NCBI RefSeq assembly: GCF_050920415.1
Contig: NZ_CP169309.1
From: Escherichia coli
GTDB lineage: Bacteria > Pseudomonadota > Gammaproteobacteria > Enterobacterales > Enterobacteriaceae
DNA length: 64,000 nucleotides
Strand: one strand, 5' to 3'
Positions 18,573 through 61,034 of this stretch are shown here, piece by piece (within the stretch, counting starts at the first letter, position 1; the number at the start of each line of letters is the position of its first letter). The notes below the pieces were generated by a model. It saw only the letters and a list, made by a program, of their open reading frames with translations. It was not told where the DNA came from and searched no databases. The position numbers were made by a program, and so were the translations under genes.

Positions 18573-18873
18573 TTTGTTCTCCTTAATTATGTAAGGAGTA
18601 TTTGATCATGTATAAGCAATAAAAAACAGCTTTAGGTAATGAGGAATATCTCAATTTTCAAACATAAAATGCGAATTGTCTAGTACAAAAAAGCAGCGTT
18701 ACGTGATCTTTCCCTGCCTGCCTGTACGATATCCCTCAAAAATAATTTTCCAGTCAGTTATTCATGTCTAACTTAAAATCATAAAACATTTAAATTAATA
18801 ATAAACAAATTCAACCTAGTCGCATTATTATTTTAATAACACAGCATCGATTTCATAAAAAACTGCACAATGG

Positions 18874-19284: not shown

Positions 19285-19289
19285 ATCAA

Positions 19290-21779: not shown

Positions 21780-21788
21780 GTTCAGTCC

Positions 21789-23990: not shown

Positions 23991-24145
23991 GATGACCTCC
24001 CTGGTATTGCTACAGGAAAAAGTAATTAACCGATATTGACCGTACCTTCTGATATTCTCTCACTGATTCATTATCTGTATTTCCCATGAACATTCTCATT
24101 TCAACAGGAAAACCAACGAATTGTAGCCATGACAATAAGTTAACA

Positions 24146-25060: not shown

Positions 25061-25084
25061 ATACTCCCCCGTCAAATAAAAGCA

Positions 25085-25930
25085 TCAATATGGTACAGGA
25101 ATCTCGAAATAACGTTCGATATTATATGCATTCTGAAACAGTTCTGATTTTTTATCATTTTTTAATTTAGTGGCATGAGCAATATATTCGTCACCTGTAC
25201 TATACTCTATATCTACCGGCATATCTTCCGTCCACATGCCTCCAAACTTAAGTGAATCCCCGTACCTTATAAAGTGAGATAGTTCATGGCAGAGTGTCGA
25301 TGCCTTAGAGTTTTCCCCAGTGAATGGCCTATCTATAAATCTTTGTCCTATAGTTATACTTACCAAACTTTTAAAGCTTCCAGATTTTACACCCAAAATC
25401 TGATCGTAAGTTACATTGGCAGCATAAGCGTCATTATCTGTACAATTCACAAAGTTACCAATTTTGGGCCTGATTACGTCTTTGTCAACATATTCATTAC
25501 CCCCTTTGTCATTAAGAACAAGATTACAATTGGCATCACGTTTGAGGAAATGGTCATGAACGGTAACGTCTACACAATCACCTTCCACAGATAATTCCCC
25601 ACATATCTCATACAGGCGAGTAACGCCATTTCTCATATAATCCCTTGCCTTTATATTCTCTGTAAACAGAGTATTACGCCCCCCGAAAGGGAACTTTAAT
25701 TTAATATAAGTATTTCCATCAATGCCAAATATATTTATAAATTCCTGATTTTGTTCCGCCCCCCATTTATCACCAAGATCTTCTACTCTTTTTTTCAATA
25801 CAGCCATCTGCGCCTTCAGAGCCTCTCTCATCATTATTTTAAAATCATTAGTAATTTTCCCCTCCTTTAAAACTACACACTGTTCACCACTCTGGCTTTT
25901 TCCGCTCGTACTACCCTTTTCATCTCCCAT
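25085..25930 (-). CDS. VgrG-linked putative zinc-metallopeptidase-like effector (281 aa, HExxH)
   Basis: CHELSHF (HExxH) at residues 215-219, with a possible downstream Asp ligand in STGDEY; hydrophilic N-terminus with no signal peptide; AAGGAGGA RBS; 81 bp after the vgrG stop. Confidence 0.5.
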   Translation of the reverse strand: MGDEKGSTSGKSQSGEQCVVLKEGKITNDFKIMMREALKAQMAVLKKRVEDLGDKWGAEQNQEFINIFGIDGNTYIKLKFPFGGRNTLFTENIKARDYMRNGVTRLYEICGELSVEGDCVDVTVHDHFLKRDANCNLVLNDKGGNEYVDKDVIRPKIGNFVNCTDNDAYAANVTYDQILGVKSGSFKSLVSITIGQRFIDRPFTGENSKASTLCHELSHFIRYGDSLKFGGMWTEDMPVDIEYSTGDEYIAHATKLKNDKKSELFQNAYNIERYFEIPVPY

Positions 25931-26011
25931 ATAAATCCTCCTTGGTATATATTTTCACTACAAACCCTGTTCCATTTATGCAAAAACACGCCAATTACAG
26001 GCGGTCACTCT

Positions 26012-28324
26012 CTATTCATTAATCCCTCCCCATATCATATCGATATTCAAATGCAACAATCTGACGTCTATTGTCTGCTCGCTGTCAGTGGTGAATATTT
26101 CCGTATACCCATCCTTATCCGTTTCTCCGCGGGTCTGCGTGCCGTCCTCAAAGAAGGCAATGTAGCGTGTCTCTGAATACGGTATCCCGTCATCGTCTGT
26201 AAAATGGAACTGGAGAGTATATTTTTCAGGGTTCTCATCATCATTCTCATCCTCCAGCGCCTCCAGTACAACCGGTTGCAGCGTCGATACTGGCGTCCCC
26301 GGACCTCCCCCACCATTCAGGTTTATCTTCGGCCCCACTATATCCACGCCGCCAGAGTGTATCACCACGAACGAACCGCCCGCTTTCAGGCTTATCTGGC
26401 TGCTGCTCTCCAGCACGATATCCCCGTCCACCTTTATCCCCAGCGCGCCACTCACCTTCTCCGCCAGGTCACCCTTCACCTCCAGGCTGTGTTTCCCCTC
26501 CACCAGGCTGATATGGTTTCCCGTCGTCTTATGCTCCTGCTTCCCTTCCACCGTCACTTTACGGTCGTTTCTGACATACAGGCCGTCATCGTGACTCACG
26601 CTCACCGTCCGGTCATTCGTCACCTTCAGCGTCTGGTCATTACGTACCGTTATGCGCCGGTCGTTCGCCACCGTGATACTCTGGTCGTGACCCCCTTCTT
26701 TTCTGGTGCCGACCTCAACCGTCTGCCCCTTCACCACCCTTATCTTCTGGTCGTTACCGATGGTCTCCGTATGGTCATGCTTCACGTCCGTCGTCCGGTC
26801 GTTAAGCACCTCCGTGTCCATGTTCTTCTGCGCGTGGATATACACCTGCTCACTGTCCGTCGCATCCTCGAAACGCAGTTCATTAAAGCCGCTTCCTTTA
26901 TAGGTCTTCGAGCGGATGGTCATCTGCGTCCGCGTGCCCGGTAAATCCCCCGGTGAACGGTTATCTTCATGGTAGGTCCGCCCCGTCACAATGGGCTGGT
27001 CCGGGTCGCCGTTCAGAAAGTCCACTATCACTTCCTGACCCACACGCGGTATCGCCAGATTGCCGAACCCCGGTCCCGCCCATGCCTGCGACACCCGTAT
27101 CCAGCATGAACTCTCCTCCGTCATCCCGTGATAACGGTCCCAGTGAAACTTCACCCGTACCCGGCCATGCTCGTCGCAGAATATCTCCTCACCCTTCGGC
27201 CCGGTCACGATGGCACTCTGCGGGCCGTCCACCTTCGGCTTCGGCAGCGGCGCGTGACGCCACGTCCTGTCTGCCGGTATCACCTCAAACTGATTGCTCA
27301 GTGTCGTCCCTTCACCGTGACTCCCGTGCAGCGCCTGCGGCTGTTCTCCCCGCAGTGTGCTTCCCACAACCTGCCATTCCCGGTTCAGCGTCGCTGACGG
27401 ATGGCCCGTCAGCCGGAACCGCGTTCCCGGCCACAGCCGCGCCGTGTTACACACCCCGCTCGCCGTCTCCGCCCCGTTCCGCCACCCTTCCGTCTGGTAA
27501 CGCGCAAAATCCTGGCCATGCTGCTCATCCTTGAAACGCCCCGGATAATCAAATATCTCGTACTGCGTTCCCTGTCCGTTCAGGCTCTCCCCGTCATGGC
27601 TGTAGTACCCCGGCCACCCCGGCGTTTTGAACGTATAATCCTGCGTCTCCACCGACGCCACGCTTATCTGCGCACGGTAACGGAAGTCGCGGATGTACTC
27701 TGTCGTGCCTCCGGTCGTGGTATTCGGGTTAAACGCCAGCGCCCCCATTCCCGTCAGCCCCGCCACGTCATCACACACCGCCAGCTTCTGTTCCGGCCCG
27801 TCCTGACTGCAGCGTTCATAAAAGAAGATACCTTCCTCCGCCCACAGCCGGGTCAGGAATGTCAGGTCGCTCTCCCCGTACTGCACGCAGAACTCCCGCG
27901 CCGGGTGCGCCTCATAGAACAGCGGCATCCACGCCGTCACCCCGTTCTCTTCAAGAAGCTGCGCTGATATCGTCTGAATGTCCTGCTGCTGGAAGATACG
28001 GAAGTTCTGCCGTAACCCTGCCCGCCACAGCGGCGGGCTGATGCTCAGGGAATAACGCATCTGCCAGTCGTTGTTCTCACCGAGCTGCACCTCTGTCACG
28101 ATACCGCTGACGTAACGCTGTGCAGTGTCGCCCTGCCAGACCGTCAGCACCGCGCTTTTCTCCAGAAAATCTTCTGCCGTCAGGTCAGACAGTCCGCTGG
28201 CGATATCCACATCCAGGATGAACGGTGTGCAGTGGTGCTGGTACAGACGGAAGCTCACCACCGCCGTCGCCATCTCCACAATACCGTCCACCGACAGCGT
28301 GAAACGTAATCCTTCTGCTGCCAT
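26012..28324 (-). CDS. vgrG: Type VI secretion spike protein VgrG with a divergent acidic C-terminal extension (about 770 aa)
   Basis: Start set at MAAEGLRFTLSVDG (ATG at 28322-28324); core nearly identical to the vgrG at 21789-23990; C-terminal 100 aa (...EDENDDENPEKYTLQFHFTDDDGIPYSE...) is unique. Confidence 0.9.
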   Translation of the reverse strand: MAAEGLRFTLSVDGIVEMATAVVSFRLYQHHCTPFILDVDIASGLSDLTAEDFLEKSAVLTVWQGDTAQRYVSGIVTEVQLGENNDWQMRYSLSISPPLWRAGLRQNFRIFQQQDIQTISAQLLEENGVTAWMPLFYEAHPAREFCVQYGESDLTFLTRLWAEEGIFFYERCSQDGPEQKLAVCDDVAGLTGMGALAFNPNTTTGGTTEYIRDFRYRAQISVASVETQDYTFKTPGWPGYYSHDGESLNGQGTQYEIFDYPGRFKDEQHGQDFARYQTEGWRNGAETASGVCNTARLWPGTRFRLTGHPSATLNREWQVVGSTLRGEQPQALHGSHGEGTTLSNQFEVIPADRTWRHAPLPKPKVDGPQSAIVTGPKGEEIFCDEHGRVRVKFHWDRYHGMTEESSCWIRVSQAWAGPGFGNLAIPRVGQEVIVDFLNGDPDQPIVTGRTYHEDNRSPGDLPGTRTQMTIRSKTYKGSGFNELRFEDATDSEQVYIHAQKNMDTEVLNDRTTDVKHDHTETIGNDQKIRVVKGQTVEVGTRKEGGHDQSITVANDRRITVRNDQTLKVTNDRTVSVSHDDGLYVRNDRKVTVEGKQEHKTTGNHISLVEGKHSLEVKGDLAEKVSGALGIKVDGDIVLESSSQISLKAGGSFVVIHSGGVDIVGPKINLNGGGGPGTPVSTLQPVVLEALEDENDDENPEKYTLQFHFTDDDGIPYSETRYIAFFEDGTQTRGETDKDGYTEIFTTDSEQTIDVRLLHLNIDMIWGGINE

Positions 28325-35835: not shown

Positions 35836-36021
35836 GTGAAAAGTGCAGACGTGATCGCCATCCTGAAGCAGCATGGCTGGGAACATATTCGAACCCGTGG
35901 TAGTCATCATCAGTTCCGCCACCCTGTCCATCCGGGTCTGGTGACGGTTCCGCACCCTAAAAAAGATATTAAGCCCGGTACGCTGGCGCAAATTGGGCGT
36001 CAGGCTGGTTTAACATTTTAA
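35836..36021 (+). CDS. hicA: HicA-family toxin (YcfA-like mRNA interferase), 61 aa, GTG start
   Basis: MKSADVIAILKQHGWEHIRTRGSHHQFRHPVHPGLVTVPHPKKDIKPGTLAQIGRQAGL matches the HicA pattern (GSHhqf...vtvPhH.kdlk.gtl..I..qaGl). Confidence 0.7.
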   Translation: MKSADVIAILKQHGWEHIRTRGSHHQFRHPVHPGLVTVPHPKKDIKPGTLAQIGRQAGLTF

Positions 36022-36037
36022 AATTTCAGGAGGCAAT

Positions 36038-36448
36038 ATGTTTTATCCCGCCTATATCCACAGTGATCCTGACGGCAGCGCCAGCGGTTTTTTCCCTGAT
36101 GTTCCAGGCTGTTATTTTGCTGGTGATACGCTGGACAACGCTTTCCAGGATGCGCGAAGTGCACTGGTCGCGCACTTCGAAACCTTATGCGAGATGAATG
36201 AAGAGTTGCCGCTTCCAGGCTCTGTGGAAACACATCTGGTCCAGCGTGCGCAGGACTTTATTGGCGGGCAATGGTTGCTGGTGGATATCAATATGAATCA
36301 GTTCGAAGGTCGGGCTGAACGTATCAATATTACGATGCCGAAAAGATTACTGAACAAGATTGATACCTACGTGCGCAATAACCCAGACTACGCCAACAGA
36401 AGTGCGTTTCTGGCGGAAGCTGCCCGGCGTGTATTGCCGGGCGTTTAA
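36038..36448 (+). CDS. hicB: HicB-family antitoxin with C-terminal ribbon-helix-helix domain (136 aa)
   Basis: Starts 17 bp after hicA; N-terminal HicB fold; C-terminal INITMPKRLLNKIDTYVRNNPDYANRSAFLAEAARRVL has RHH character. Confidence 0.65.
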   Translation: MFYPAYIHSDPDGSASGFFPDVPGCYFAGDTLDNAFQDARSALVAHFETLCEMNEELPLPGSVETHLVQRAQDFIGGQWLLVDINMNQFEGRAERINITMPKRLLNKIDTYVRNNPDYANRSAFLAEAARRVLPGV

Positions 36449-36780
36449 TCTCGCGTTTCGATGGTGAGCGGGCGGACCAGGCTGTACAGCCACAGACCAA
36501 AACAAGCGATGGTGCCAATCACCACGGTGAGGAACACACTGACTGACAGGCCTGCAAGCAATCCCGCAGGCAGGGCCAGCAGGCCGTGGATCACGGTGTC
36601 GTTCCATCTCACCTGATCGTAGCCAAACATGCCTAAAACGCCGCAAACCAGACCGTAAATCACCATTGGTGTTCCGAGGCCAATCAGCAATAAACGGTAG
36701 ATAATTGAAGGTTTAATACGCTTTATCTGTACTGTGGATGTTTTACTGGGGTTATTCATTAGTTTGGTCAATAGTTCCAT
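36445..36780 (-). CDS. Small inner-membrane protein, about 110 aa, 2-3 predicted TM helices
   Basis: Hydrophobic segments IIYRLLLIGLGTPMVIYGLVCGVLGMF and LLALPAGLLAGLSVSVFLTVVIGTIACFGLWLY; convergent with hicB, stop codons overlap; start codon uncertain. Confidence 0.4.
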   Translation of the reverse strand: MELLTKLMNNPSKTSTVQIKRIKPSIIYRLLLIGLGTPMVIYGLVCGVLGMFGYDQVRWNDTVIHGLLALPAGLLAGLSVSVFLTVVIGTIACFGLWLYSLVRPLTIETRD

Positions 36781-40289: not shown

Positions 40290-40370
40290 TTCAGGCTTGA
40301 TAAGACGCGTTAAGCGTCGCATCAGGCAATGTGCACCCTACGTTGGATGCGGCGCGAGCGCCTTATCCAA
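40290..40370. repeat. REP/BIME elements
   Basis: gcttgataagacgcgttaagcgtcgcatcaggc and ggatgcggcgcgagcgccttatcc palindromes. Confidence 0.6.
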
Positions 40371-40371
40371 C

Positions 40372-42342
40372 CTACGGATGGCAATGCTTTTCCTCATTCA
40401 CCCAGATCCGCATTTCGCCTTCACCCCGGTTAGCCCAGCTAAACCACGGGATAAATGTCAGAGTTTGCGGCTGGCGTTTGGCTGGCGCGCTGTCGTAATG
40501 CCACAGCGGTTGCTGCTCTGGATTGCTCTGTTCATACCGGTAACCCGGTGCCTGGATTAAGATCTTATGGCGGAACAATCCATTACCTTCAAATGTCGTA
40601 AATGGCGCATCGGCGGGCAGCCACAGGTTATGCAGTGACTCGCCGTTGTCGGCCTGTTCCAGGCAATACACCAGCGGGCCGCGCTGAATCGCCACTTTTC
40701 CGGCGACGTGACGCACCAGCGGGTTACCGTAAACGCGACGTACCGGCATTGGCAAAGTCAGATTCAGCGTGTCGCCCTCCTGCCATTCGCGGGTAATGTG
40801 CAAATACCCTTTACGAATATCCTGCTCGACCTCTTCCCCATTCAATGTAATCTGCGGCTGTGTGCACCAGTCCGGCAGACGTAAAGCCAGCGTATGACGC
40901 ACCGGCTGGGGCGATTCAACCGCAATTGTCACCTGTTCCTGCCACGGATAGTTTCCGCTAACCCGCAGACGCAGCGTGCCATTTTCTACCGGCACTTCCA
41001 TGCTGTTTCCTGCGTAGATGTTGATATACAACGCATCTTCACGCGGCGTGTAGAGATAATGACCAATCGAGGTTAGCACGCGGGCGATATTTGGCGGACA
41101 ACAAGCGCAACCAAACCAACGCTGGCGGATCGGCTTAACGTGATCGTAGATATGGTTGAATTTCAGCGATTTTGGATGTACTTCCAGCGGATTCACATAG
41201 AAGAAATGTTTGCCATCCAGCGCCATGCCGCCGAGCACGGTGTTGTACAGTGCGCGCTCCATCACATCGGCATATTGACTGTCGCCTTCCATTTCCAGCA
41301 TTCGCCGGGCGAACATCATCAGGCCGATGGAAGCACAGCTTTCGGCGTATACCGTGTCATTCGGCAGATCGTAATCGCTGCTGAACGCTTCGCCGCTGCT
41401 TTGTGAGCCAATGCCGCCGGTAATATATAACTGACGCTGGGCCATATTGTTCCACAGCCGCAGGCAGTCCTGACGCTTGCTTTCATCGTGACTTAAACGC
41501 GCGAGATGCGCGACGCCGGTCATCAGGTAGACAAAACGTACCGCGTGACCAATGGCAGTTTGCTGCTGTGCGATGGGCAAATGTGCCTGGCTGTAGGCTT
41601 TGTCTTTCACCATCCACGCCGGGCCGTAGGTGTGCCAGTGCGAGGTCTGCCCGCGCTTTTCATATTCCTGGTCGTAATAGTGCGGTTGCGCACCACGCTG
41701 TTCGACAAAATAGTTCGTCAGCGCCAGGTAGCGCGGCTCTTCGGTCACTTCATATAGGCGCATTAGTGCCAGTTCAATTTCCGGGTGACCAGGATAACCG
41801 TGTAACTTACTTTCACCTGGACCAAATACGCTGTCGATATGATCGGCCAGACGGCAAACCACTTCCAGCAAGCGCCGCTTGCCCGTGGCCTGGAAGAAGG
41901 CGACTCCGGCTTCAATCAGATGACCGGCGCAGTAAAGTTCATGACACTCCGCCAGATTGCTCCAGCGTTCTTCGGGCGTTTTTACCGTAAAGTAAGTATT
42001 GAGATAGCCATCTTCGCACTGGGCGGAAGCGACCAGTTCGATTACCTCGTCAGCAGTTTTTTCCAGTTCGGCATCCGGCTTCTGGCACAGCGACCAGGCT
42101 ACCGCTTCCAGCCATTTGGCGACGTCGCTGTCCTGAAACACCATCCCGTAAAATTCACCGTCTTGCAGTCCTGCGGCAATGCGAAAGTTTTCAATCGCAT
42201 GGCTGGGTTCCGCTTCTGGGATACGATCGTTCAAGGCATCCCACTGATAAGGAATCACCACGTCGCGGACCAGTTGTTGGTACTGACCGAGGAACGGATC
42301 GCTGACCGTCAGTTTATGCAGATCGACTTCCGAAATGTTCAT
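40372..42342 (-). CDS. Glycoside hydrolase, GH127-like (DUF1680 family, beta-L-arabinofuranosidase-type), about 656 aa
   Basis: Start at MNISEVDLHKL (AAGGAG RBS); Cys-rich motif WFGCACCPPN typical of GH127 as I recall it; 10 bp downstream of the transporter gene. Confidence 0.65.
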   Translation of the reverse strand: MNISEVDLHKLTVSDPFLGQYQQLVRDVVIPYQWDALNDRIPEAEPSHAIENFRIAAGLQDGEFYGMVFQDSDVAKWLEAVAWSLCQKPDAELEKTADEVIELVASAQCEDGYLNTYFTVKTPEERWSNLAECHELYCAGHLIEAGVAFFQATGKRRLLEVVCRLADHIDSVFGPGESKLHGYPGHPEIELALMRLYEVTEEPRYLALTNYFVEQRGAQPHYYDQEYEKRGQTSHWHTYGPAWMVKDKAYSQAHLPIAQQQTAIGHAVRFVYLMTGVAHLARLSHDESKRQDCLRLWNNMAQRQLYITGGIGSQSSGEAFSSDYDLPNDTVYAESCASIGLMMFARRMLEMEGDSQYADVMERALYNTVLGGMALDGKHFFYVNPLEVHPKSLKFNHIYDHVKPIRQRWFGCACCPPNIARVLTSIGHYLYTPREDALYINIYAGNSMEVPVENGTLRLRVSGNYPWQEQVTIAVESPQPVRHTLALRLPDWCTQPQITLNGEEVEQDIRKGYLHITREWQEGDTLNLTLPMPVRRVYGNPLVRHVAGKVAIQRGPLVYCLEQADNGESLHNLWLPADAPFTTFEGNGLFRHKILIQAPGYRYEQSNPEQQPLWHYDSAPAKRQPQTLTFIPWFSWANRGEGEMRIWVNEEKHCHP

Positions 42343-42352
42343 CTTGTGCTCC

Positions 42353-43753
42353 TTAAGGCTGTACATGACGCTGACGCAGGTCGCTAGCAATGCGTGACAT
42401 CATAGGGTTATTGAGTTTGCAAAAGCGGATCGCCATCGCCAGCAGCAGGTGGAACAGCGCAGGCAGCAATGTTTCCATCGCTGCGATCCCGCCAAGCGAA
42501 CTGGCGGTCTGGTTTTCCACGCCTGGCTGGTAGGCGACAAAAATAAACAGCAGGCTGATGATCCCGGCGCTGGAGGCCCAGGCCAGCTTGATGAAAAACA
42601 GATTGAAGGCGAAGTTCATGCCGGAAGAACGTACGCGGGTTTTCCACTCGCCGTAGTCATCGGCAAAGGCCATCAATGAGAAGTGCAATGGCAATGTGAA
42701 GCCAAGAATCACGCCATTACCAAGGATCACCGCCAGCCACAGCGTTTGATAAGCCGGGCCAGAAGGCAGGAACCACATCAACACCGCCAGCGCGGCGAGG
42801 AGCAGGTTGGTGTAGTAGTAAATTTTGACGGTATCGAAACGTCGCGTTAACGGGCTGACAATCACCGAGCCGATAATGGAGGCGAAGGTGACCATAGTGA
42901 AGAACAGCGACGTGTAGCCCGTACTGCCTTGTAAGACGTAGGTAATGAAGTACATATACCCACCGCCGCGAATATTAAAGACGTTAATCAGCAGGAAAGA
43001 CATGACCAGCATCAGCAGCAGTTGGTCGTTGTTTCGCAGCCCGGCAAGATGTTCGCGCAGGGTAAATTTCCCCATTGTGGAGAGTGGCACCCGTTCACGA
43101 ACCCAGAAGAAACAGCACAGGAACATCACCACAGCGATGGCGCACAGCACGCCGACGCCCAGTTGATAGCCGCGCGCGGCATTACCCTGACCGAAGAGAT
43201 CCACCATCCACGGCAGGCCAACCGAAACCAGAAATCCCGCTACGCCGCAGAGAACGAATCGCCAGGACTGGCAGGAGATCACTTCATTGTGGCGGGTGGT
43301 CATGGTGTTGATCAGCGCGCAGTACGGCACGTTGATGGCGGTATAACCGACTGAAAGGAGCAGGTAAGTGCCGAACGCCCAGGCGATTTTTACTCCCATG
43401 CTGGCATCTGGCACGGTGAACGTCAGGATGCCGATAATGCCGATGGGAATGGCAATCCACAACTGCCACGGACGAAAGCGCCCCCAGCGACTTTGCGTCC
43501 GGTCGGCAATGACGCCCATCACCGGGTCGGAGATGGCATCAAACACGCGCAGTGCAATAAACAGCGTGCCGACCAGCGCCGGAGTTAAGCCAAAAACGTC
43601 GGTGTAGAAAAAGGTGAGAAAGTTCATGATCAGGCAAGTTATGACGGTGCCGCCAGCGTCACCCAGGCCGTAGCCTATTTTTTCCCGTACAGATAACGCG
43701 TCGTCAATTTTACCTTTAGCGATATCAGCGGTGGTAATCGGTGTAGAGGTCAT
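42353..43753 (-). CDS. GPH-family (MelB-like) glycoside/cation symporter, about 466 aa
   Basis: 12-TM profile; N-terminal [35 protein letters not shown] and the D/R-rich loop-helix motifs typical of the GPH family. Confidence 0.7.
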
Positions 43754-43978
43754 AGATATTCCTCGCAAATAGAGAGCATTTTTTTGTTTTATTGCAATGA
43801 CCTGATTAATTTCGCCGTTATCTGGAATATCAACAAGGCGAGAAAAGAGTAAAAAAAGGTGACGATTCCGACCTGAATTTAAAAGTGTGAATTGGATCAG
43901 GTGAAATTAATGTTTTTGATTAATAATCAAAAGGTAATGTGTTTAATCATTAATGAATAAGCGGGAAATTACATATCA

Positions 43979-44794
43979 ATGCTCGAATTATCCATGACGT
44001 TACCGATTAAAGTGCAAAATGGTGGATTATTTATTTCCCGTGGCGTAGGGAGGCATCCGGCAAGGCGGCTGGAGTCATGGGAAATTATCTTTGTCGAAAA
44101 AGGTCGATTAGCGATTCAGGAAGAAGAGCGGATATTTCTGGTCGATGCGGGAGAGAGTTTATTACTCTGGCCGAACCGACAGCATGTTGGGGTAGAGGAT
44201 TTTCCCGCCGATCTCAAATTTTACTGGCTGCATTTTGAGGTTAAAGCGCCGGATAGCGACCCGCGCTGGCTCACTCATCTTAGTGTGCCGCAACAAACGA
44301 AGGTTGCCGATCCGCAGGCGCTGGTGGCCCTGTTTCGCCAGTTCTTAAGCGAACAGGAAAAGCATCAACGCACTCCGGCGCTGGAGTTTATTGTGCTGCT
44401 GATTTTGCAGCAACTCACCCGTGACGCGCGTCTTGATGAACAGGCCGATGCCGCAGGTACCACGCTTGCCTGGAAAGCGCAGAAACTGATCCGCACGCAA
44501 TATCATCGCCCGCTTTCCACTGCGCTTTTAGCCCGCGAGCTGTACTGCAATGCCGATTATCTTGGGCGCGTCTATCGGCGGGTGTTTCATCTGACGTTAA
44601 CAGAAGCAATCCACCGCCAGCGGGTGCGCGAAGCCGAAAAGCTGTTAATTAGCGAAGCGCGATCGCTCACGGAAGTGGCGGCGTTGTGCGGGTTTAATGA
44701 CGTTGGCTATTTCCGGCAGATTTTTCGCAAACACACCGGTTTAACGCCAGCTGCGTGGAAGCGACGTTACAGCAAGGAACATATCAATTCGTAG
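43979..44794 (+). CDS. AraC/XylS-family transcriptional regulator (271 aa)
   Basis: C-terminal double-HTH AraC signature (...TEVAALCGFNDVGYFRQIFRKHTGLTPAAWKRRY); divergent from the transporter/hydrolase operon. Confidence 0.75.
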   Translation: MLELSMTLPIKVQNGGLFISRGVGRHPARRLESWEIIFVEKGRLAIQEEERIFLVDAGESLLLWPNRQHVGVEDFPADLKFYWLHFEVKAPDSDPRWLTHLSVPQQTKVADPQALVALFRQFLSEQEKHQRTPALEFIVLLILQQLTRDARLDEQADAAGTTLAWKAQKLIRTQYHRPLSTALLARELYCNADYLGRVYRRVFHLTLTEAIHRQRVREAEKLLISEARSLTEVAALCGFNDVGYFRQIFRKHTGLTPAAWKRRYSKEHINS

Positions 44795-44825
44795 TGCCGG
44801 GGCAATGAAGCCCCGGCGTGAGAGA

Positions 44826-45521
44826 TTACTGCCCGTAATAGGCATTGGCCCCATGTTTACGCAGGTAGTGCTTATCCAGCAGTTCGTTTTGCATCGCAGG
44901 GAGCTGCGGCGCAAGCTGGCGCGAGAACAGGCCCATATAGGCGCACTCTTCCAGCACTACGGCATTATGCACCGCATCGGCGGCGTTTTTTCCCCAGGCG
45001 AACGGGCCGTGAGAATGCACCAGTACCGCCGGGATTTGTGCCGGACTCCTGCCGCGTTCTTCGAAAGTTTCAATGATCACTTCGCCGGTCTGATATTCAT
45101 ATTCGCCGTTAATCTCCTCTACGGTCATCTGTCGCGTGCAGGGGATGGCACCATAGAAATAATCGGCGTGCGTGGTGCCCCAGGCGGGGAGATCCAGCCC
45201 GGCCTGTGACCAGATGGTGGCGTGGCGCGAGTGGGTATGCACAATGCCACCGATTTCGGCATAGCGACGGTAAAGCGCCAGATGCGTTGGCGTATCGGAC
45301 GAGGGCTTTTTGCTACCTTCCACCACCTTGCCGCTGGCTATCTCAACCACCACCATATCGTCGGCGGTCATCACGTCGTACTCGACGCCGGAAGGCTTAA
45401 TTACCATCCATTGCCGCGTCTCGTCTACCGCACTGACATTGCCCCAGGTAAACGTCACCAGATGGTGAGCGGGAAGCGCCAGATTTGCCGCCAGTACGTC
45501 GGCTTTCAGTTGTTCTAACAT
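44826..45521 (-). CDS. sgbE: L-ribulose-5-phosphate 4-epimerase (231 aa)
   Basis: Class II aldolase/epimerase motifs (HTHS...; [12 protein letters not shown]); last gene of the yiaK-sgbE cluster. Confidence 0.85.
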
Positions 45522-46375
45522 ATAAATCCAGCCTCCTGCATACGCGCTTCAATCCAGCGCCGTGCCTGAATAATCTCCAGCACCGGCTCTTTGGCTTTTT
45601 CGGTCCACATCTCAATCAGAAATGATCCGCGATAGTTCAGTTCATGCAGCGTTTTGAAGATACCAACGAAATCGACGCAGCCTTCGCCAAACGGCACGTC
45701 GCGGAACTGTCCGGGGCTATGCTCGGTCACTGGCTGGGTATCTTTCAGGTGGATGGCGGCGATACGGTCAATGCCCAGTTTCAGTTCAGCGGGAACATCA
45801 TTGCCCCAGGCGCTAAGGTTGCCGACGTCCGGGTAGACGGTGAACCACGGCGAGGCGAGCATCTCGTCCCACTTTTTCCATTTGCTGATGGAGTTCATAA
45901 ACGAGGTATCCATAATCTCCACCGCCAGCATTACTTGTGATGCCGCCGCCTGTTCGACAGCCCACGTCAGCCCTTCAGCAAAACGTTGCCGGGTACCTTC
46001 GTCATGGTCTTCGTAATAGACGTCGTAGCCCGCCAGTTGAATGGTGCGAATACCGAGATCGCGCGCCAGGCGAATCGCTTTGCTCATGATCTCCCGCGCC
46101 CGTTCGCGCACCGCCTCGTCCCGGCTGCCAAAAGGAAAACGGCGATGGGCAGACAGACACATTGACGGAATGGTAACACCCGTTTCGATCATCGCGGTGA
46201 CCAGCGAGGCACGTTGCGCGGCGCTCCAGTCAAGGCGTGACAGCCGTTCATCGGTTTCATCCACCGACATTTCGACAAAATCAAAGCCACAGCTTTTCGC
46301 CAGCACCAGCCGCTCGGGCCAGGAGAGATCTTTCGCCAGTGCTTTTTCATAAATCCCTAACGGATGATTACGCAC
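45515..46375 (-). CDS. sgbU: L-xylulose-5-phosphate 3-epimerase (286 aa, GTG start)
   Basis: TIM-barrel sugar-phosphate epimerase; start assigned at GTG ([13 protein letters not shown]...), overlapping the sgbH stop. Confidence 0.8.
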
Positions 46376-47030
46376 GCGCGCCTCCCCAGATAGCGTCGAT
46401 TTGCGCATGGAAGTCGGCAGCTACCTGTGCCGGATTTGCTGCGCCTGCCAGCGCCCGCCCGGCAATAAACGCTTTCACGCGGATATCTTTAAACAGCGGC
46501 AGGTCAGCAGGCGTAATCCCGCCGGTAATGGAAAGCTCAAGGCCGATATCGGAAAGCGCCTTCATGCGTGCCAGATCGGCTTCGCCCCACTGTTGCCCGC
46601 TGGCTTGCGCGTCACGGCCACGATGATAAATGGCCTGCCGCACGCCAATACGATGCCAGTCGCGGGCGTCGTCCAGCGTCCAGTTACCAAAAAGCTCTAT
46701 CTGGATTTCACCACCGCAGCGTTGCGCCATTGCGTGGCCTTTTTCTACCGTCGCGAGCGGTGCAGCGCAGATGATGGTCATCCAGTTAGCGCCTGCGCCA
46801 AACGCCTGTTGCGCGAGCGTTTCACCAGCATCGGCGACCTTCCAGTCAGCAACGATGATTTTGTCCGGGCACTGTTCGCGCAAGGCTTTCACCGCGCCAA
46901 GCCCTTCGTTTAAACAGAGAATGGTGCCCGCTTCGACGATATCGACGCTGTCTTTTAACAGCGCAACGTCGCGCTGTGCGGCTTCAAGTGATGAGTGGTC
47001 GAGGGCCAGTTGCAGAAGTGGTCTGCTCAT
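46368..47030 (-). CDS. sgbH: 3-keto-L-gulonate-6-phosphate decarboxylase (220 aa)
   Basis: OMP-decarboxylase-like fold ([18 protein letters not shown]...); 220 aa. Confidence 0.85.
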
Positions 47031-48523
47031 AATGTGTTCTCCTTAACGCGGGCATGAAAGCCCTGTAGTGCGGCAATGAGGTGCTGATAGCGTTGGTATT
47101 TTTGTTGGTAAAGCTGATGGGCGGTCATATCCGGTAACAGGGTGCGCACCGGGTGCTGTTGATCGCGCTGGGCTTCGCTGAAATCGCGATAAACACCGGT
47201 GCCGACGCGGGCTGCAAGCGCCGCGCCAAAACAGCCCGTTTCTTGCACCTGCGGCAGTTCGATACGCAGTCCGCTAACGTCCGCCAGCATTTGCATCCAG
47301 ACATCGGAGTGCGCCGGGCCGCCAGTGACGCGCAGGGTGTGCACATCAGTAAAACGTTCGCGCATCCGGTTGAGGTGGGTCATATGGCTGAACACCACGC
47401 CTTCATAAATGGCCTGCAACAGGTGTGCGCGGGTGTGAATGGCCTGCATCCCGTAGAAACCGCTGGTCATCTCGAGTCCGGCGTTGCTGCCGTACAGGAA
47501 CGGCAGGAAAAAGAGATCGCCACCGGCTTTCGGTAAGCTGGCAACAGCCTGGTTGATCTCTGCAAACGAGATTTCTCCCCACTGCGCGGTAAACCATTCG
47601 AGATTGCCGGAAGAGGTAGGGCTGGCTTCGTGAACGATAAATTCACCGTCGTTAACGTAGCGGCCATAGACATACGGATGCGCTTCACCGCCACCTAAAC
47701 CGCTGGTTATGCCGCTGGTCACCGCCCAGGTCCCCATCACCGCATTGAGGGTAAATTCGTCTTCGATTCCGGCGCAGAGTGCGGTAGAAACCACATCAAA
47801 CAGGCCGCCGACAACGGGCGTACCCGCTTTCAGACCGGTCAGTGCGGCTGTCTGAGCGGTGATTTCCCCGCAGATTTCGGCAGATCCAACAACAGGCGGC
47901 AGGGCGTGATTGATTTCACTGATCCCCAGCCAGTTGGTGAGGCACGGGTCATATTCCCCGCGACTCATGTTGTAGAGATTGGATTCGGAAATATTGCTCT
48001 CTTCGCAGCCTTTGACACCGGTTAAACACCAGCGCAGGTAGTCGTGCGTCATCATCACGCAGCCAATTTGCGCGTAGCGTTCTGGTTCGTGTTCTTTCAG
48101 CCAGCGTAACAGCGACACCGGATGCCCGGTCCACAAGGTTTGTCGGGTCAGCGGGTAGAGTTTTTCCGGGATGTTATCTTCCTGCCAGCGACGAACGATT
48201 TCCATCGCCCGGCGATCCGAGGACAAAATGGCGTTACCGAGCGGCTTGTCGTTTTTATCCAGCAAAAACAAGCCCTTTCCCTGTGCGGAGATACCGATGC
48301 CGACAATTTGCTCTCCGCTAACGCTGGAATGGGTAAGCAGGGCGCGAATGACAGCCATGCAGCATTGCCACAGTTCTTCTATATCGCGCTCTGCCCAGCC
48401 TGGCTGCGGGCTTAATGCGCACAGCGGCAGGCGCTGCACGCCTGCCTCCCAGCCTTCGCGGTCATACAGTCCGGCTTTTAGCCAGCTTCCGCCACAATCT
48501 AACCCCAGCCAGTATTGCGTCAT
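47027..48523 (-). CDS. lyxK: L-xylulose kinase (498 aa)
   Basis: FGGY-family carbohydrate kinase, 498 aa, syntenic. Confidence 0.85.
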   Translation of the reverse strand: MTQYWLGLDCGGSWLKAGLYDREGWEAGVQRLPLCALSPQPGWAERDIEELWQCCMAVIRALLTHSSVSGEQIVGIGISAQGKGLFLLDKNDKPLGNAILSSDRRAMEIVRRWQEDNIPEKLYPLTRQTLWTGHPVSLLRWLKEHEPERYAQIGCVMMTHDYLRWCLTGVKGCEESNISESNLYNMSRGEYDPCLTNWLGISEINHALPPVVGSAEICGEITAQTAALTGLKAGTPVVGGLFDVVSTALCAGIEDEFTLNAVMGTWAVTSGITSGLGGGEAHPYVYGRYVNDGEFIVHEASPTSSGNLEWFTAQWGEISFAEINQAVASLPKAGGDLFFLPFLYGSNAGLEMTSGFYGMQAIHTRAHLLQAIYEGVVFSHMTHLNRMRERFTDVHTLRVTGGPAHSDVWMQMLADVSGLRIELPQVQETGCFGAALAARVGTGVYRDFSEAQRDQQHPVRTLLPDMTAHQLYQQKYQRYQHLIAALQGFHARVKENTL

Positions 48524-48526
48524 GGC

Positions 48527-49513
48527 TTATTGCACCTCATCCACGGCTTTCAGCAGTTCATCGCCCTGCGGAACATCTTTTACAAACATGTCGCGGACCT
48601 GAGTACCCAGTACGTCGCTAAAGGCTTTGCGATCAAGTTCGGTGATGACTTCCACGCCAGCGTCTTTCATGCCGTCGATGATTTTTTGCTGATTTTCGGC
48701 GACCAATTTGCGCTGGTAATTACCCGCTTCTTGCGCAGATGAAATTAGCGCTTGCTGGAACTCCGGGCTTAAGCCATCAAACTTCGCTTTGTTGATCACC
48801 ACCAGAAGTGGGGAATAGGCATGGTGCGTCAGAGAAAGGTACTTCTGCACTTCATAAAATTTGGCTGACCAGACGACGTTGATCGGGTGTTCCTAAGCGT
48901 CGATAGTGCGCGTTTCCAGCCCGGTATAGACTTCGGCAAATGGCATCGGAATCGGGTTAGCGCCAAAGACTTTGAATGCGGCGATATTCATCGGGCTATT
49001 GTTGGTGCGTATTTTCAGCCCTTTCAGGTCGGCAGGTGTTTTAACTGGCTGGCGTGAGTTGGTGACATCGCGCCAGCCGTTTTCCCAGTAGGCCAGTACT
49101 TTCAGTCCCTTACCTTCAAGGGAGGCCTTCAGTTCATCGCCGACTTTGCCGTCGAGTGTTTTATGCGCGTGGGCGGTATCGCGGAACAGGAAAGGAACAT
49201 CAAGCAGGTTCATCACAGGTGATAATCCGGCAAAGTTATTCGAGCCAGACATCTCCATATCAATAGTGCCGCCACGCACGCCGCTGATCATCGCTTGTGC
49301 GTTGCCGAGAGTACTGTCCGGGAACAGTTTTAATTTCAGCTCGCCTTTGGTTCTCTCCTGTAATAATTCATTAAATTTTTTCGCTGCAATATGTTGTGAG
49401 TCGGTTTGTGAGGTTTCATAACCGAAACGTAATGATTGTGCCGCCAGCGAAGACGTACTGAATGCAGCGAGGCCAGCAATGAATAATGCGTAGGTTACAG
49501 AGCGTAATTTCAT
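48527..49513 (-). pseudogene. yiaO: TRAP-transporter solute-binding protein YiaO with an in-frame amber stop
   Basis: The 987-bp frame (328 codons, the length I recall for K-12 YiaO) is intact except for TAG at 48893-48895 (minus strand), giving ...TRTIDA*EHPINVVW; the codon replaces the Gln of the conserved TRAP-SBP D-x-Q-E-x-P motif. Confidence 0.75.
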
Positions 49514-49525
49514 TATATTTTCCTT

Positions 49526-50803
49526 TTAATTAATCCATTTCAACGGGAGGATGATGAGATCGGGAATAAAAACAAATAAGGCTAATAAGGAATATAAAAC
49601 CAGGACGTAAGGGAAAACGCCTCTGACTGCATCATCGAATTTGAGTTTAGCCACCCCTGAAATAACGTTAAGCACATTACCGATAGGCGGTGTAATTAAG
49701 CCGATTGAGCAGTTGATGATAAACATGACTCCGAAGTAAATCGGATCGATTCCTGCCTCTTTAACTAAAGGCATTAATACCGGGGTAAGAATTAACACCG
49801 TCGGCGTTAAATCCATTACCATACCGACTATCAAAATCGCCACCATAATGACGATAAACAGCAGACGCGGTGAATCGACCAACGGTTGCAGTAAATCAGA
49901 AACCATCATCGGCAATTCAGCAATGGTAATCAGCCAGGCAGAAACTTGTGCCGAGGCCACCAGAAACATCACCACTGAGGTGGTTTTCGCCGCGCCAATG
50001 AGTACATGCCAAAGTGTAGCGAAGGTCATTTCACGGTAAATAACTGTGGCGACAAACAACGCATAGAAAGCAGCAACGGCCCCGGCTTCGGTAGGGGTAA
50101 ACAGACCGGAGCGAAAGCCGCCAATAATAATGACCGGAAGAAATAGCGCCCAGATACCGGAAACAAAAGATTGCCAGATTTCTCGTTTCGTTGCTTTTTG
50201 CTGACGGGGTAAATTAAGACGACTGGCCTGCCACCACCAGGTGAGCATCAGCGTTGCGCCCATCATAATGCCTGGGGCAATACCCGCCATAAACAACTTA
50301 CTGATGGATAATCCGCTGGAAACACCGAAGATAATAAACGGAATGGAAGGGGGAATAATTGGCGCGATAATGCCGCCAGAGGCAATCAGCCCCGCAGCCC
50401 GGTTGACCGGGTAGTTAGCGCTGCGCATCATCGGCACTAATAGCGCGGCAACGGCGGCGGTATCCGCAACAGCAGAACCGGAAAGGCTCGCCATAATCAT
50501 TGCCGCCAGCACGCCGACGTAGCCCAGCCCGCCTGGTTTATGCCCCACCAGTTTCATCGGCAGGTCAACAATGCGTTTTGATAAGCCGCCCGCATTCATG
50601 ATTTCACCCGCCAGTACAAAGAACGGAATCGCCAGCAGGGAGAAGCTGTCAGCACCGTTTACCAGCGTTTGCGCCATGATCTGGACATCAAACATATCCA
50701 GCCAGAACATAAGCGCCGCCCCGCACAACAGTAGCGACCAGGCAATAGGCAAACCGATGGCAATGCCACCCAACAGGCAGCCCAGAAAAATCAGCACAGC
50801 CAT
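49526..50803 (-). CDS. yiaN: TRAP transporter large permease (425 aa)
   Basis: DctM-like polytopic membrane protein, 425 aa. Confidence 0.85.
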   Translation of the reverse strand: MAVLIFLGCLLGGIAIGLPIAWSLLLCGAALMFWLDMFDVQIMAQTLVNGADSFSLLAIPFFVLAGEIMNAGGLSKRIVDLPMKLVGHKPGGLGYVGVLAAMIMASLSGSAVADTAAVAALLVPMMRSANYPVNRAAGLIASGGIIAPIIPPSIPFIIFGVSSGLSISKLFMAGIAPGIMMGATLMLTWWWQASRLNLPRQQKATKREIWQSFVSGIWALFLPVIIIGGFRSGLFTPTEAGAVAAFYALFVATVIYREMTFATLWHVLIGAAKTTSVVMFLVASAQVSAWLITIAELPMMVSDLLQPLVDSPRLLFIVIMVAILIVGMVMDLTPTVLILTPVLMPLVKEAGIDPIYFGVMFIINCSIGLITPPIGNVLNVISGVAKLKFDDAVRGVFPYVLVLYSLLALFVFIPDLIILPLKWIN

Positions 50804-50805
50804 GA

Positions 50806-51279
50806 TTAAGCTCCTTGCGGTGGCGGCGTTAGAGAATTGCTACGCGTGATGAGTTGATATAAAAGGCGCAGCTCAAAGAATGCGATAACGAGGCTGGTGG
50901 GCAGACAAGCGGCATACATCAGGCCGATGGGCAAGCCGAGGATCGGTGAATAATCGCTCCAGTCCTGAATTGTTTTTAGCGTTGCGCCCCAGGCCAGTGC
51001 GCCACAAATAAATAAGATTAAGGAGTGGGTAACCAGAGCGACTCGTCGCTGCCACGCGGGGGAGAGTTTCTCCACCAGAAAGGTAACCTGAACGTGGGCG
51101 TTATCCATAAAAGCCACAATCGCGCCAATAAAGGTTAACCAGACAAATAAATAGCGCGACAATTCATCTACAGATAAAATACTTGTCTGAAAACCATATC
51201 TTAAAATAATGTTTATAAACACAATACAGGAAAGTACGGCGAGATTAATCGCCAGTATTGCTTCAAGTATTTTTTTCAT
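50806..51279 (-). CDS. yiaM: TRAP transporter small permease (157 aa)
   Basis: DctQ-like, 4 TM helices, 157 aa. Confidence 0.85.
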
Positions 51280-51386
51280 AGCTATTCCTTGAGGCTATGT
51301 TTGTCATAATTCAAGTTGCATGTGCAGCAACCTGAATTATTAATATAGTTAGAGCAATAACATTACCCAGGCGTTCTGGTGTTCGA

Positions 51387-51857
<471 letters not shown>

Positions 51858-51865
51858 TTATCTCC

Positions 51866-52864
51866 TTATAACGCCTGGATTTTTGCCCATACGCTGTCAT
51901 CAACGGTAATACCGTTACGGCGGTTTTCTGCCAGCAGGGTGGTAAATTCGTGGCCGGGTAAGCGAATGGCCTGGTTTTCATCGGCGCGTTCAGCGGTAGT
52001 AACATAATCCATGATGCGTTGCAGCTTGGCATCGCGGGTGGGGCCGTCGATCAATTTATCCACTTCGATGGCGATAAAGATTTGCGAAACACCGTATTCG
52101 TCGCTGTTATCCTGGGTGACTTCAGCAACTGACGCGCCGTCAGAAAGAAGAGTAGCGATCATATCCAATACGATCGACATACCGGAACCTTTCCAGTAAC
52201 CCATTGGCAAAATACGGCGATTTTTCTCGATTACACCAGGTTCTTTGGTGAGGTTGCCTTCATCGTCAAAGCCGCCATCGACCGGTAACTGACGGCCCGC
52301 CAGGCGGTTAACTTCTAACATGCCATAAGAGAACATCGACATCGACATATCGACCATAGTGATCGGCGTGGAAGGAATTGCGACGATCAGCGGGTTAGTG
52401 CCGATGCGACACTCTTTTGCGCCCCACGGCGGCATTACGGCGATGGAGTTGGTCCAGCAAATGCCAATATAGCCTTTTTCCGCCGCCTGCCAGCCGTAGC
52501 TGCCGCCGCGCATCCAGTGGTTGGCATTACGCAACGCCACCAGACCAATACCGTGATCGGCAGCCAGTTCAATGGCGCGATCCATCATCTTTTTCGCCGT
52601 CAGATTGCCGATTGAACGCTGGGCGTCCCACTGTTCAATTGCGCCGAGGCTGGTTATACGTTTGGGTTGGGCATCAGGAATGATATCGCCGTTTTCCAGT
52701 TGTTGAATGAAACGAGGGAAACGGTTGACGCCGTGAGAATAAACGCCGGATTCGGTGGTGCGGGCGAACATTTCGGCACAGGCATCAGCCGTTTCGCTGT
52801 CAACGCCGCGTGAAATTAAGACTCGATTAAAGGCTGCTTTTAACTGCTCAAATGTCACTTTCAA
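51866..52864 (-). CDS. yiaK: 2,3-diketo-L-gulonate reductase (332 aa)
   Basis: Ldh2-family oxidoreductase, 332 aa, first gene of the cluster. Confidence 0.85.
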
Positions 52865-53064: not shown

Positions 53065-53913
53065 ATGGGGAAAGAAGTGATGGGAAAAAAAGAGAACGAG
53101 ATGGCGCAGGAAAAAGAGCGTCCAGCCGGAAGCCAGAGTCTGTTTCGCGGGTTGATGCTGATTGAGATTTTGAGCAACTATCCAAATGGTTGCCCGCTGG
53201 CGCATCTCTCGGAGCTGGCAGGTTTAAATAAGAGTACCGTCCATCGCTTATTGCAGGGATTACAGTCCTGCGGCTATGTGACCACCGCGCCCGCCGCAGG
53301 GAGTTACCGCCTGACTACCAAATTTATTGCCGTCGGGCAGAAGGCGCTGTCTTCGCTGAATATCATTCATATCGCCGCTCCGCATCTTGAGGCACTGAAC
53401 ATCGCCACTGGTGAAACCATTAACTTCTCCAGCCGCGAAGACGATCACGCTATTTTGATTTATAAGCTGGAACCCACGACCGGGATGCTGCGAACCCGAG
53501 CTTATATAGGCCAGCATATGCCGCTCTACTGTTCCGCAATGGGCAAGATCTATATGGCGTTTGGTCACCCGGACTACGTGAAGTCATACTGGGAAAGCCA
53601 TCAGCATGAGATCCAGCCGTTAACCCGCAATACCATTACCGAGCTGCCCGCGATGTTCGACGAACTGGCGCACATTCGTGAAAGCGGAGCGGCGATGGAC
53701 AGAGAAGAAAACGAACTCGGCGTCTCCTGTATTGCTGTTCCGGTGTTTGATATTCATGGGCGGGTGCCGTACGCCGTGTCGATTTCTCTTTCGACATCAC
53801 GTCTGAAACAGGTGGGGGAGAAAAATCTCCTGAAACCACTGCGTGAAACCGCGCAGGCTATTTCTAATGAACTGGGATTTACTGTCAGGGACGACCAGGG
53901 CGCGATCACATAA
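53065..53913 (+). CDS. yiaJ: IclR-family transcriptional repressor YiaJ (282 aa)
   Basis: IclR HTH (LAELAGLNKSTVHRLLQGL) and C-terminal effector domain; divergent from yiaK. Confidence 0.85.
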   Translation: MGKEVMGKKENEMAQEKERPAGSQSLFRGLMLIEILSNYPNGCPLAHLSELAGLNKSTVHRLLQGLQSCGYVTTAPAAGSYRLTTKFIAVGQKALSSLNIIHIAAPHLEALNIATGETINFSSREDDHAILIYKLEPTTGMLRTRAYIGQHMPLYCSAMGKIYMAFGHPDYVKSYWESHQHEIQPLTRNTITELPAMFDELAHIRESGAAMDREENELGVSCIAVPVFDIHGRVPYAVSISLSTSRLKQVGEKNLLKPLRETAQAISNELGFTVRDDQGAIT

Positions 53914-54604: not shown

Positions 54605-55897
<1,293 letters not shown>

Positions 55898-59379: not shown

Positions 59380-59766
59380 GGCGGATGAGTCCTTATTGCT
59401 GCGATTTCAGACAGTTTGCCAGCGATAAGCCAGACAAAACTCATCCCTGAGCGGTAAGTCCACAGGATGAGAAGCAAGGGTGAGCGATCGCGCGCAAAAA
59501 ACGGCCGAATTTTGCGATAAACCCCACATTTTCTGCGATTTAGCGCCAATCTGAATCGTTAACACGTGACATAGTTTCAGATTTGGACTATTCCTTGGGG
59601 TGCTCTTGACGGCTATTTTTGATATGATTTGAGATTCAACTCTCAAATTTGTGAAAAATATAAGGTGTTGGAATGTAGACTGGCCCCCTGAATCTCCAGA
59701 CAACCAGTATCACTTAAATAAGTGATAGTCTTAATACTAGTTTTTAGACTAGTCATTGGAGAACAG

Positions 59767-60132
59767 ATGATTGATGTCTTAGGGCCGGAGAAACGCAGAC
59801 GGCGTACCACACAGGAAAAGATCGCAATTGTTCAGCAGAGCTTTGAACCGGGGATGACGGTCTCCCTCGTTGCCCGGCAACATGGTGTAGCAGCCAGCCA
59901 GTTATTTCTCTGGCGTAAGCAATACCAGGAAGGAAGTCTTACTGCTGTCGCCGCCGGAGAACAGGTTGTTCCTGCCTCTGAACTTGCTGCCGCCATGAAG
60001 CAGATTAAAGAACTCCAGCGCCTGCTCGGCAAGAAAACGATGGAAAATGAACTCCTCAAAGAAGCCGTTGAATATGGACGGGCAAAAAAGTGGATAGCGC
60101 ACGCGCCCTTATTGCCCGGGGATGGGGAGTAA
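59767..60132 (+). CDS. insC: IS2 OrfA (InsC-like), 121 aa
   Basis: [53 protein letters not shown]... (HTH plus leucine zipper). Confidence 0.85.
60084..60090 (+). other. IS2 programmed -1 ribosomal frameshift heptamer (AAAAAAG)
   Basis: aaaaaag at 60084-60090, in the orfA/orfB overlap. Confidence 0.6.
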
Positions 60133-60995
60133 GCTTAGTCAGCCGTTGTCTCCGGGTGTCGCGTGCGCAGTTGCACGTCATTCTCAGACGAACCGATGAC
60201 TGGATGGATGGCCGCCGCAGTCGTCACACTGATGATACGGATGTGCTTCTCCGTATACACCATGTTATCGGAGAGCTGCCCACGTATGGTTATCGTCGGG
60301 TATGGGCGCTGCTTCGCAGACAGGCAGAACTTGATGGTATGCCTGCGATCAATGCCAAACGTGTTTACCGGATCATGCGCCAGAATGCGCTGTTGCTTGA
60401 GCGAAAACCTGCTGTACCGCCATCGAAACGGGCACATACAGGCAGAGTGGCCGTGAAAGAAAGCAATCAGCGATGGTGCTCTGACGGGTTCGAGTTCTGC
60501 TGTGATAACGGAGAGAGACTGCGTGTCACGTTCGCGCTGGACTGCTGTGATCGTGAGGCACTGCACTGGGCGGTGACTACTGGCGGCTTCAACAGTGAAA
60601 CAGTACAGGACGTCATGCTGGGAGCGGTGGAACGCCGCTTCGGCAACGATCTTCCGTCGTCTCCAGTGGAGTGGCTGACGGATAATGGTTCATGCTACCG
60701 GGCTAATGAAACACGCCAGTTCGCCCGGATGTTGGGACTTGAACCGAAGAACACGGCGGTGCGGAGTCCGGAGAGTAACGGAATAGCAGAGAGCTTCGTG
60801 AAAACGATAAAGCGTGACTACATCAGTATCATGCCCAAACCAGACGGGTTAACGGCAGCAAAGAACCTTGCAGAGGCGTTCGAGCATTATAACGAATGGC
60901 ATCCGCATAGTGCGCTGGGTTATCGCTCGCCACGGGAATATCTGCGGCAGCGGGCTTGTAATGGGTTAAGTGATAACAGATGTCTGGAAATATAG
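60090..60995 (+). CDS. insD: IS2 OrfB (InsD-like) DDE transposase, 301 aa, normally expressed as an OrfAB fusion by -1 frameshifting
   Basis: DDE catalytic core (...WCSDGFEF...LTDNGSCY...E at [12 protein letters not shown]); overlaps orfA in the -1 frame. Confidence 0.85.
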
Positions 60996-61034
60996 GGGCA
61001 AATCCAGAATGATTAAATCCGACCAGGAGACCTG

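Follow-up and report, generated by a model that had tools for sequence, protein, structure and literature searches.

An in-frame amber codon in the gene for the periplasmic binding protein of a TRAP transporter raises the question of whether the stop is a real and inherited lesion, and what it leaves of the sugar-acid import system to which the gene belongs. The system concerned, YiaMNO, is to our knowledge the sole well-studied TRAP importer of sugar acids in E. coli. Within the window, by which we mean the whole stretch of 64,000 nucleotides that was analysed, a frame of 328 codons runs on the minus strand from an ATG at position 49513 to a TAA at 48529-48527. Translation gives T-I-D-A-[stop]-E-H-P around a TAG at codon 207, which is the only internal stop; the frame holds no other stop and no indel. 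An in-frame amber at 48893-48895, in a yiaO frame of 987 bp otherwise intact and of the correct length, had been noted in the original prediction. Both points are confirmed: translation and the list of open reading frames put the TAG exactly there, and the frame has the 987 nt of K-12 yiaO, with no further stop or indel. An in-frame stop is either present or absent, so that a pattern due to chance does not come into question.

The interrupted gene is yiaO because it has the K-12 gene order, equal length, 92.6% DNA identity and only 13 residue differences. The order is yiaJ followed by yiaK-yiaL-yiaM-yiaN-yiaO-lyxK-sgbH-sgbU-sgbE, with yiaO located between yiaN and lyxK; K-12 yiaO (b3579) likewise lies beside yiaJ/plaR in the yiaKLMNO-lyxK-sgbHUE operon and spans 987 nt. 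The 13 substitutions relative to K-12 YiaO are conservative (315 of 328 residues identical, stop excluded; nucleotide identity as above), whereas codon 207, CAG in K-12, reads TAG in the window and leaves a product of only 206 residues. With Gln207 restored, the protein matches positions 1-285 of the 286 in the model of the Pfam family DctP (PF03480; E=5.5e-108), and scores 371.5 bits against NCBIfam TIGR00787, for which the cut-off is 175. Genes for the two permease subunits, yiaM (DctQ, PF04290) and yiaN (DctM, PF06808), are found immediately upstream. The earlier assignment to yiaO thus holds on K-12 synteny, on the few residue differences besides the stop and on the DctP match. K-12 YiaO binds 2,3-diketo-L-gulonate (Thomas et al. 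2006, as cited in PMC7660916), and its family assignment also follows literature cited in that article.

As read from translation, profile matches and K-12 synteny, the yiaO pseudogene, encoding a DctP-type periplasmic binding protein of the YiaMNO TRAP transporter, occupies 48527..49513 on the minus strand. The premature TAG at codon 207, ancestrally CAG (Gln), lies at 48893..48895, the mutated base being window position 48895. Upstream of it, the coding part of the truncated product (48896..49513, minus strand) specifies 206 aa, which include the signal peptide and amount to the first 63% of the protein; in the list of open reading frames the same 206-aa frame is given as 48893..49513 on the minus strand, with the stop counted in. 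The untranslated 3' part beyond the stop (48527..48892, minus strand) measures 366 nt, i.e., 121 sense codons and the TAA. It contains an in-frame ORF of 107 aa (48527-48850, minus strand) that starts with GTG at codon 222 and is at times called as a separate gene by gene callers. In the window's ORF list we found no plus-strand ORF of at least 60 aa that overlaps the amber site, and Rfam gave no match at this site. Selenocysteine or pyrrolysine recoding of codon 207 was considered and rejected on established knowledge: selenocysteine recoding uses UGA together with a SECIS element, and the pyl system is, as far as we know, absent from E. coli.

A stop at codon 207 of 328 removes 122 of the 328 residues, the C-terminal 37% of the protein. 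The 206-aa fragment spans positions 1-177 of the 257 positions of the TIGR00787 profile, and the downstream fragment matches positions 194-257 with a score under the cut-off. The affected codon lies in a motif of DctP proteins with the form D-[GA]-Q-E-[NH]-P, which reads D-A-[stop]-E-H-P in the window; in the closest solved relatives (4p9k, 4pdh and 4p47), D-G-Q-E-N-P is aligned with the D-A-Q-E-H-P of YiaO. The original prediction had stated that this motif requires Gln. The codon does lie in the motif, but "requires" is too strong, as in an alignment of 150 diverse representatives of less than 50% pairwise identity, 124 of 147 sequences (84%) have Gln in the column of residue 207 and some of the remainder have Glu, Leu or Ala. 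The neighbouring motif columns hold Asp in 140/147, Glu in 131/147 and Pro in 129/146. It is the truncation, and not the identity of the lost residue, that counts in yiaO.

What the truncation takes away can be gauged by comparison with Haemophilus influenzae SiaP (2cex, 3b50), which belongs to the same fold family (E=2.9e-44); SiaP has sialic acid as its ligand, and the comparison is used for this purpose only. Arg169 of YiaO (in L-K-I-R-T) aligns with the conserved carboxylate-binding Arg147 of SiaP and, counted from this conserved Arg, Gln207-Glu208-His209 of YiaO align with Gln185-Glu186-Asn187. In SiaP, Glu186 and Asn187 are part of a hydrogen-bond network around the ligand and the hinge, and with the exchange E186Q or N187Q the Kd rises about 100-fold, from 16.6 nM to some 1.4-1.8 µM; His209 and the hinge residues 211-212 are situated farther downstream than Asn187 (PMC4089482). 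By alignment, the lost part of YiaO includes the equivalents of SiaP Glu186, Asn187 and His209. We infer that the 206-aa YiaO would be unable to form a two-lobed binding protein and, given the size of the truncation, that YiaO is almost certainly dead as a periplasmic binding protein.

A TRAP transporter needs its binding protein to function, which leaves full-length YiaM and YiaN without a partner. Judged from the sequence, yiaO is very probably a recent, inherited nonsense pseudogene that provides no working binding protein, and uptake of 2,3-diketo-L-gulonate by YiaMNO would be lost with it. In the course of events that we propose, one C>T transition would have changed the CAG of Gln207 to amber, and release factor 1 would terminate translation at codon 207 to yield a 206-residue fragment. 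This fragment would be devoid of the C-terminal 37% of the DctP fold, and so of the equivalents of SiaP Glu186, Asn187 and His209, of the remaining hinge and of what this stretch contributes to both lobes. A functional periplasmic binding protein would then be missing, the intact YiaM and YiaN would be partnerless, and 2,3-diketo-L-gulonate could no longer enter via YiaMNO; expression of lyxK-sgbHUE might be reduced as well, by lost coupling or Rho-dependent polarity. The allele would have a single origin, on a haplotype of the Escherichia clade I type in which yiaK had already acquired its weaker TTG start, and would have spread by descent.

The origin of the stop can be traced among close relatives. 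Codon 207 is CAG in all intact alleles examined. The yiaO gene of GCA_020145685.1 differs from that of the window at a single base, sense position 619 (C instead of T), with 3 nt differences across the 10,987 bp compared; at loci L006 and L017 the difference in yiaO is confined to sense position 619, where both have C. The substitution is a C>T transition on the coding strand, corresponding to G>A at window position 48895 on the plus strand. A single C-to-T change had been proposed as the origin of the stop, and the intact allele that differs at just this position bears this out; the comparison with related strains that was also suggested, once run, gave CAG in the intact relatives and TAG in a sister genome. 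A Dcm deamination hot spot at codon 207 was tried as an explanation and rejected: the ancestral context GCTCAGGAA is not CCWGG, so that no special mutational hot spot is present at this codon. The gene is matched in 4858 of 5426 complete RefSeq E. coli genomes (megablast), and two of the matches listed show at least 99% identity to the yiaO of the window, namely MFDS1022581 (100%, TAG) and N96 (99.4%, CAG). In MFDS1022581 (NZ_CP169399.1), yiaO is identical including the TAG, and the surrounding 43.7 kb are 99.98% identical, with 8 mismatches and 2 gaps; an IS2-like insertion of 1331 bp is present in the window only. Because of this insertion, the 8 mismatches and the 2 gaps, the two are separate genomes, and by these measures the window is another isolate of the lineage of MFDS1022581. 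The near-identity of the 10-kb haplotypes that carry the TAG allele suggests that it has a single origin.

The other genes of the operon have kept their length. On the minus strand, the window encodes intact yiaN (49526..50803; TRAP large permease, 425 aa), yiaM (50806..51279; TRAP small permease, 157 aa) and yiaL (51387..51854; 155 aa), a full-length yiaK with a TTG start (51866..52864; 2,3-diketo-L-gulonate reductase, 332 aa), intact lyxK (47027..48523; L-xylulokinase, 498 aa), and full-length sgbH (46368-47030), sgbU (45515-46375) and sgbE (44826-45521). The IclR-type operon repressor gene yiaJ/plaR (53065..53913) is intact and divergent, on the plus strand. Apart from yiaK and yiaO, all of these (yiaL, yiaM, yiaN, lyxK, sgbH, sgbU, sgbE and yiaJ) are as long as in K-12, and the annotation of MFDS1022581 gives them as intact. 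The claim that yiaMN and the downstream genes remain intact is correct insofar as all are full length, but they are intact in sequence only and the operon is not pristine, for yiaK starts with TTG (52864-52862, minus strand). At this position ATG is present in K-12, in N96 and in four other relatives. The carriers of TAG, namely the window, MFDS1022581 and GCA_019569295.1, share the TTG start with two genomes that have CAG in yiaO, GCA_020145685.1 and an ENA assembly, so that the ATG>TTG change in yiaK came before the CAG>TAG change in yiaO. Besides the window and MFDS1022581, these TTG genomes are draft or metagenome assemblies. The TTG start probably lowers translation of yiaK, the first gene of the operon, and in this order of changes the erosion of the operon is apparently a two-step one, with the yiaK start codon affected first and yiaO by the amber second. 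Downstream of the amber, the ATG of lyxK is located 3 nt past the natural stop of yiaO, from which the amber lies 366 nt upstream. It is plausible that lyxK-sgbHUE expression is lowered by lost translational coupling or by Rho-dependent polarity; the first ~90 nt past the amber contain 22 C and 15 G, a mild C excess that is uninformative as to a Rho site.

Decay of yiaO beyond the stop itself was not apparent in comparison with K-12. There are 73 nt differences to the K-12 gene, 61 of them at third codon positions, and the 13 amino-acid substitutions all recur in the intact sister allele. This indicates that yiaO was still under purifying selection in the very recent past and that the stop has not been followed by decay. 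The operon from yiaK to sgbE (44826-52864) has 92.6-96.4% DNA identity to K-12 and is as a whole more diverged than most genes of the flanks, where identity is mostly 96-98.8%. In the flanks, yiaJ, yiaT-yiaV, bax and xylR are 97.3-98.8% identical to K-12, and ysaA, yiaW, aldB, malS and avtA 94.3-96.7%. Alleles of yiaO at least 95% identical to that of the window occur in about 30 of the 4858 complete genomes, among the matches listed. This pattern suggests that the yia operon is a deeply diverged haplotype or an old recombination tract.

Loss of yiaO is a recurrent event in the species. No yiaO match was obtained by megablast in 568 of the 5426 complete E. coli genomes (~10%). Products of yiaO of 224-238 aa are recorded in E. 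coli and Shigella, each on tens to hundreds of contigs; these truncations (P0002-P0006) concern the same gene and have independent ends near codons 220-238, but they derive from other mutations (frameshifts or stops) in a K-12-like allele, and the codon-207 amber is not among them. Some of these truncated products may be partial genes at contig ends. Four of the products (P0003-P0006), from E. coli and Shigella sonnei genomes, are truncated near codons 220-227, and one 224-aa form is present on 189 contigs. Recurrent loss and the changed yiaK start point to relaxed selection on a dispensable and often-lost yia operon. That the loss of YiaO was instead adaptive and has been selected, which would explain why the TAG allele outnumbers its intact parent haplotype, seems unlikely. 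The TAG allele is found in 85 index blocks as opposed to 31 for the intact protein of otherwise identical sequence, the operon carries a second weakening change in the yiaK TTG start, and yiaO has been truncated repeatedly and independently in other lineages. However, block counts reflect the sampling of clones and not fitness, and recurrent loss together with ~10% absence is equally expected under relaxed selection. We know of no phenotype that would favour the loss of YiaO.

A stop codon need not abolish a product entirely. Basal readthrough of UAG in E. coli is in the order of 0.01-1%, and low-level near-cognate readthrough of yiaO is possible. That the amber is on this account leaky and not null, with near-cognate decoding by tRNA-Gln(CUG) that inserts the original Gln, is in our judgement improbable. 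A leaky allele would supply a little wild-type YiaO, in amounts that vary with growth state or release factor 1 level, and would make a low-level importer out of one with high capacity; in that case, selection would preserve yiaMN and the remainder of yiaO in the lineage.

Slightly less probable again is that the codon is read through to an extent that keeps the transporter working, by a supE-type tRNA-Gln with a CUA anticodon or by an efficient near-cognate tRNA, again with a leaky allele as the outcome. Suppression by tRNA-Gln would regenerate exactly the wild-type YiaO, and the rest of yiaO as well as yiaMN are undecayed, although the latter is equally expected if the mutation is very young. 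The genomic context speaks against a suppressor of this kind. The window contains no tRNA gene, and in the 99.98%-identical MFDS1022581 all four tRNA-Gln genes have wild-type anticodons (two UUG and two CUG): ARAGORN gave UUG, UUG, CAU, CUG and CUG for glnU-glnW-metU-glnV-glnX, in which the glnX-glnV cluster was located by gene-order walking. The exact supE44 tRNA sequence is present in 155 of 5423 complete genomes, and the 15 of these 155 matches that were listed are all laboratory strains or bear laboratory-strain names. This check covered suppressors of the Gln-inserting type. A recent nonsense pseudogene remains the preferred reading of yiaO over any form of readthrough.

We regard it as very improbable that the TAG is an error of sequencing, assembly or polishing in a yiaO that is truly intact with CAG. 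The one-base difference from an otherwise identical intact allele would fit such an error, as would the presence of the TAG haplotype in just 1 of the 4858 yiaO-bearing complete E. coli genomes in RefSeq, a count that refers to the exact haplotype. Yet the window and MFDS1022581 are two distinct genomes that both have TAG, and the exact 206-aa product is recorded on 49 contigs (85 index blocks), whose sources were deposited years apart and include draft genomes at NCBI, SRA runs assembled by Logan, and E. coli M863. The site is outside any homopolymer and, with the ancestral sequence GCTCAGGAA, does not form a CCWGG Dcm site. The restored 328-aa protein with Gln207 is itself an exact public sequence, in the 31 index blocks mentioned above. 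As independent assemblies carry the same base, the amber is not a sequencing error; resequencing to CAG, which the original prediction had named as the result that would speak against it, is in effect answered by these many TAG assemblies. On these comparisons, the stop in yiaO is a real, recent, inherited and lineage-specific nonsense mutation that makes the gene a pseudogene.

The stop is also already known in public annotation. In MFDS1022581, yiaO (ACE00D_RS00790) is flagged by PGAP as a pseudogene with "internal stop", and the truncated product of E. coli M863, the same 206 aa as predicted from the window, is deposited in GenBank as a "DctP family" protein (EGB61413.1). M863 serves as a strain of Escherichia clade I (PMC4182557). 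Among the papers searched, none contained "yiaO" together with "pseudogene".

Reassembly of a working binding protein from the 206-aa and 107-aa polypeptides of a split yiaO is barely conceivable: both pieces are predicted by gene callers and each matches DctP, but the 107-aa ORF starts at codon 222 and so omits residues 207-221 with Q-E-H-P, it lacks a signal peptide and would remain cytoplasmic, it scores below the family cut-off, and we know of no case in which a split TRAP binding protein reassembles.

With yiaO as a nonsense pseudogene, the lineage is predicted to be unable to take up the ascorbate breakdown product 2,3-diketo-L-gulonate through YiaMNO. It would add one further case of yia operon erosion in natural Escherichia. 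The role of YiaMNO in vivo is still poorly understood, and the TAG and CAG sisters, which are about 3 bases apart in 11 kb, form a natural pair with which this role could be probed. Both the amber at codon 207 and the TTG start of yiaK could be used as lineage markers. Beyond correct annotation the significance is small, as this is ordinary gene loss.

The window shows several other differences in gene content. The IS2-like insertion, located between malS and bax (59676-61006), encodes OrfA of 136 aa and OrfB of 301 aa and was very recently acquired, since it is absent from the 99.98%-identical MFDS1022581. A copy of IS621 (IS110 family) is situated at about 54610-55885 between ysaA and avtA; it is common to MFDS1022581 and absent from N96 and K-12. 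Between yiaT and sgbE, at about 40370-44800, the window carries three kinds of intact gene, which encode a GH127 glycoside hydrolase, an MFS transporter and a regulator of the AraC family, where K-12 has just the short pseudogene remnants ysaC and ysaD. The aldB-yiaW interval (about 35836-36760) contains a hicA/hicB toxin-antitoxin pair and a small hypothetical gene, all of which K-12 lacks at this position. Both selA and selB are found inside the window, which we judge to be a coincidence relative to the yiaO stop. The sole Rfam match of the window is naRNA4 (RF02564, a REP-derived nucleoid-associated RNA; 67.8 bits) at 40294-40372 on the minus strand. Finally, the region at about 16000-28300 harbours two vgrG/tssI modules (type VI secretion tip) with downstream hypothetical genes, and includes an internal duplication of ~83% identity (21917-23972 and 26254-28306) as well as remnants of an ISAs1 transposase.
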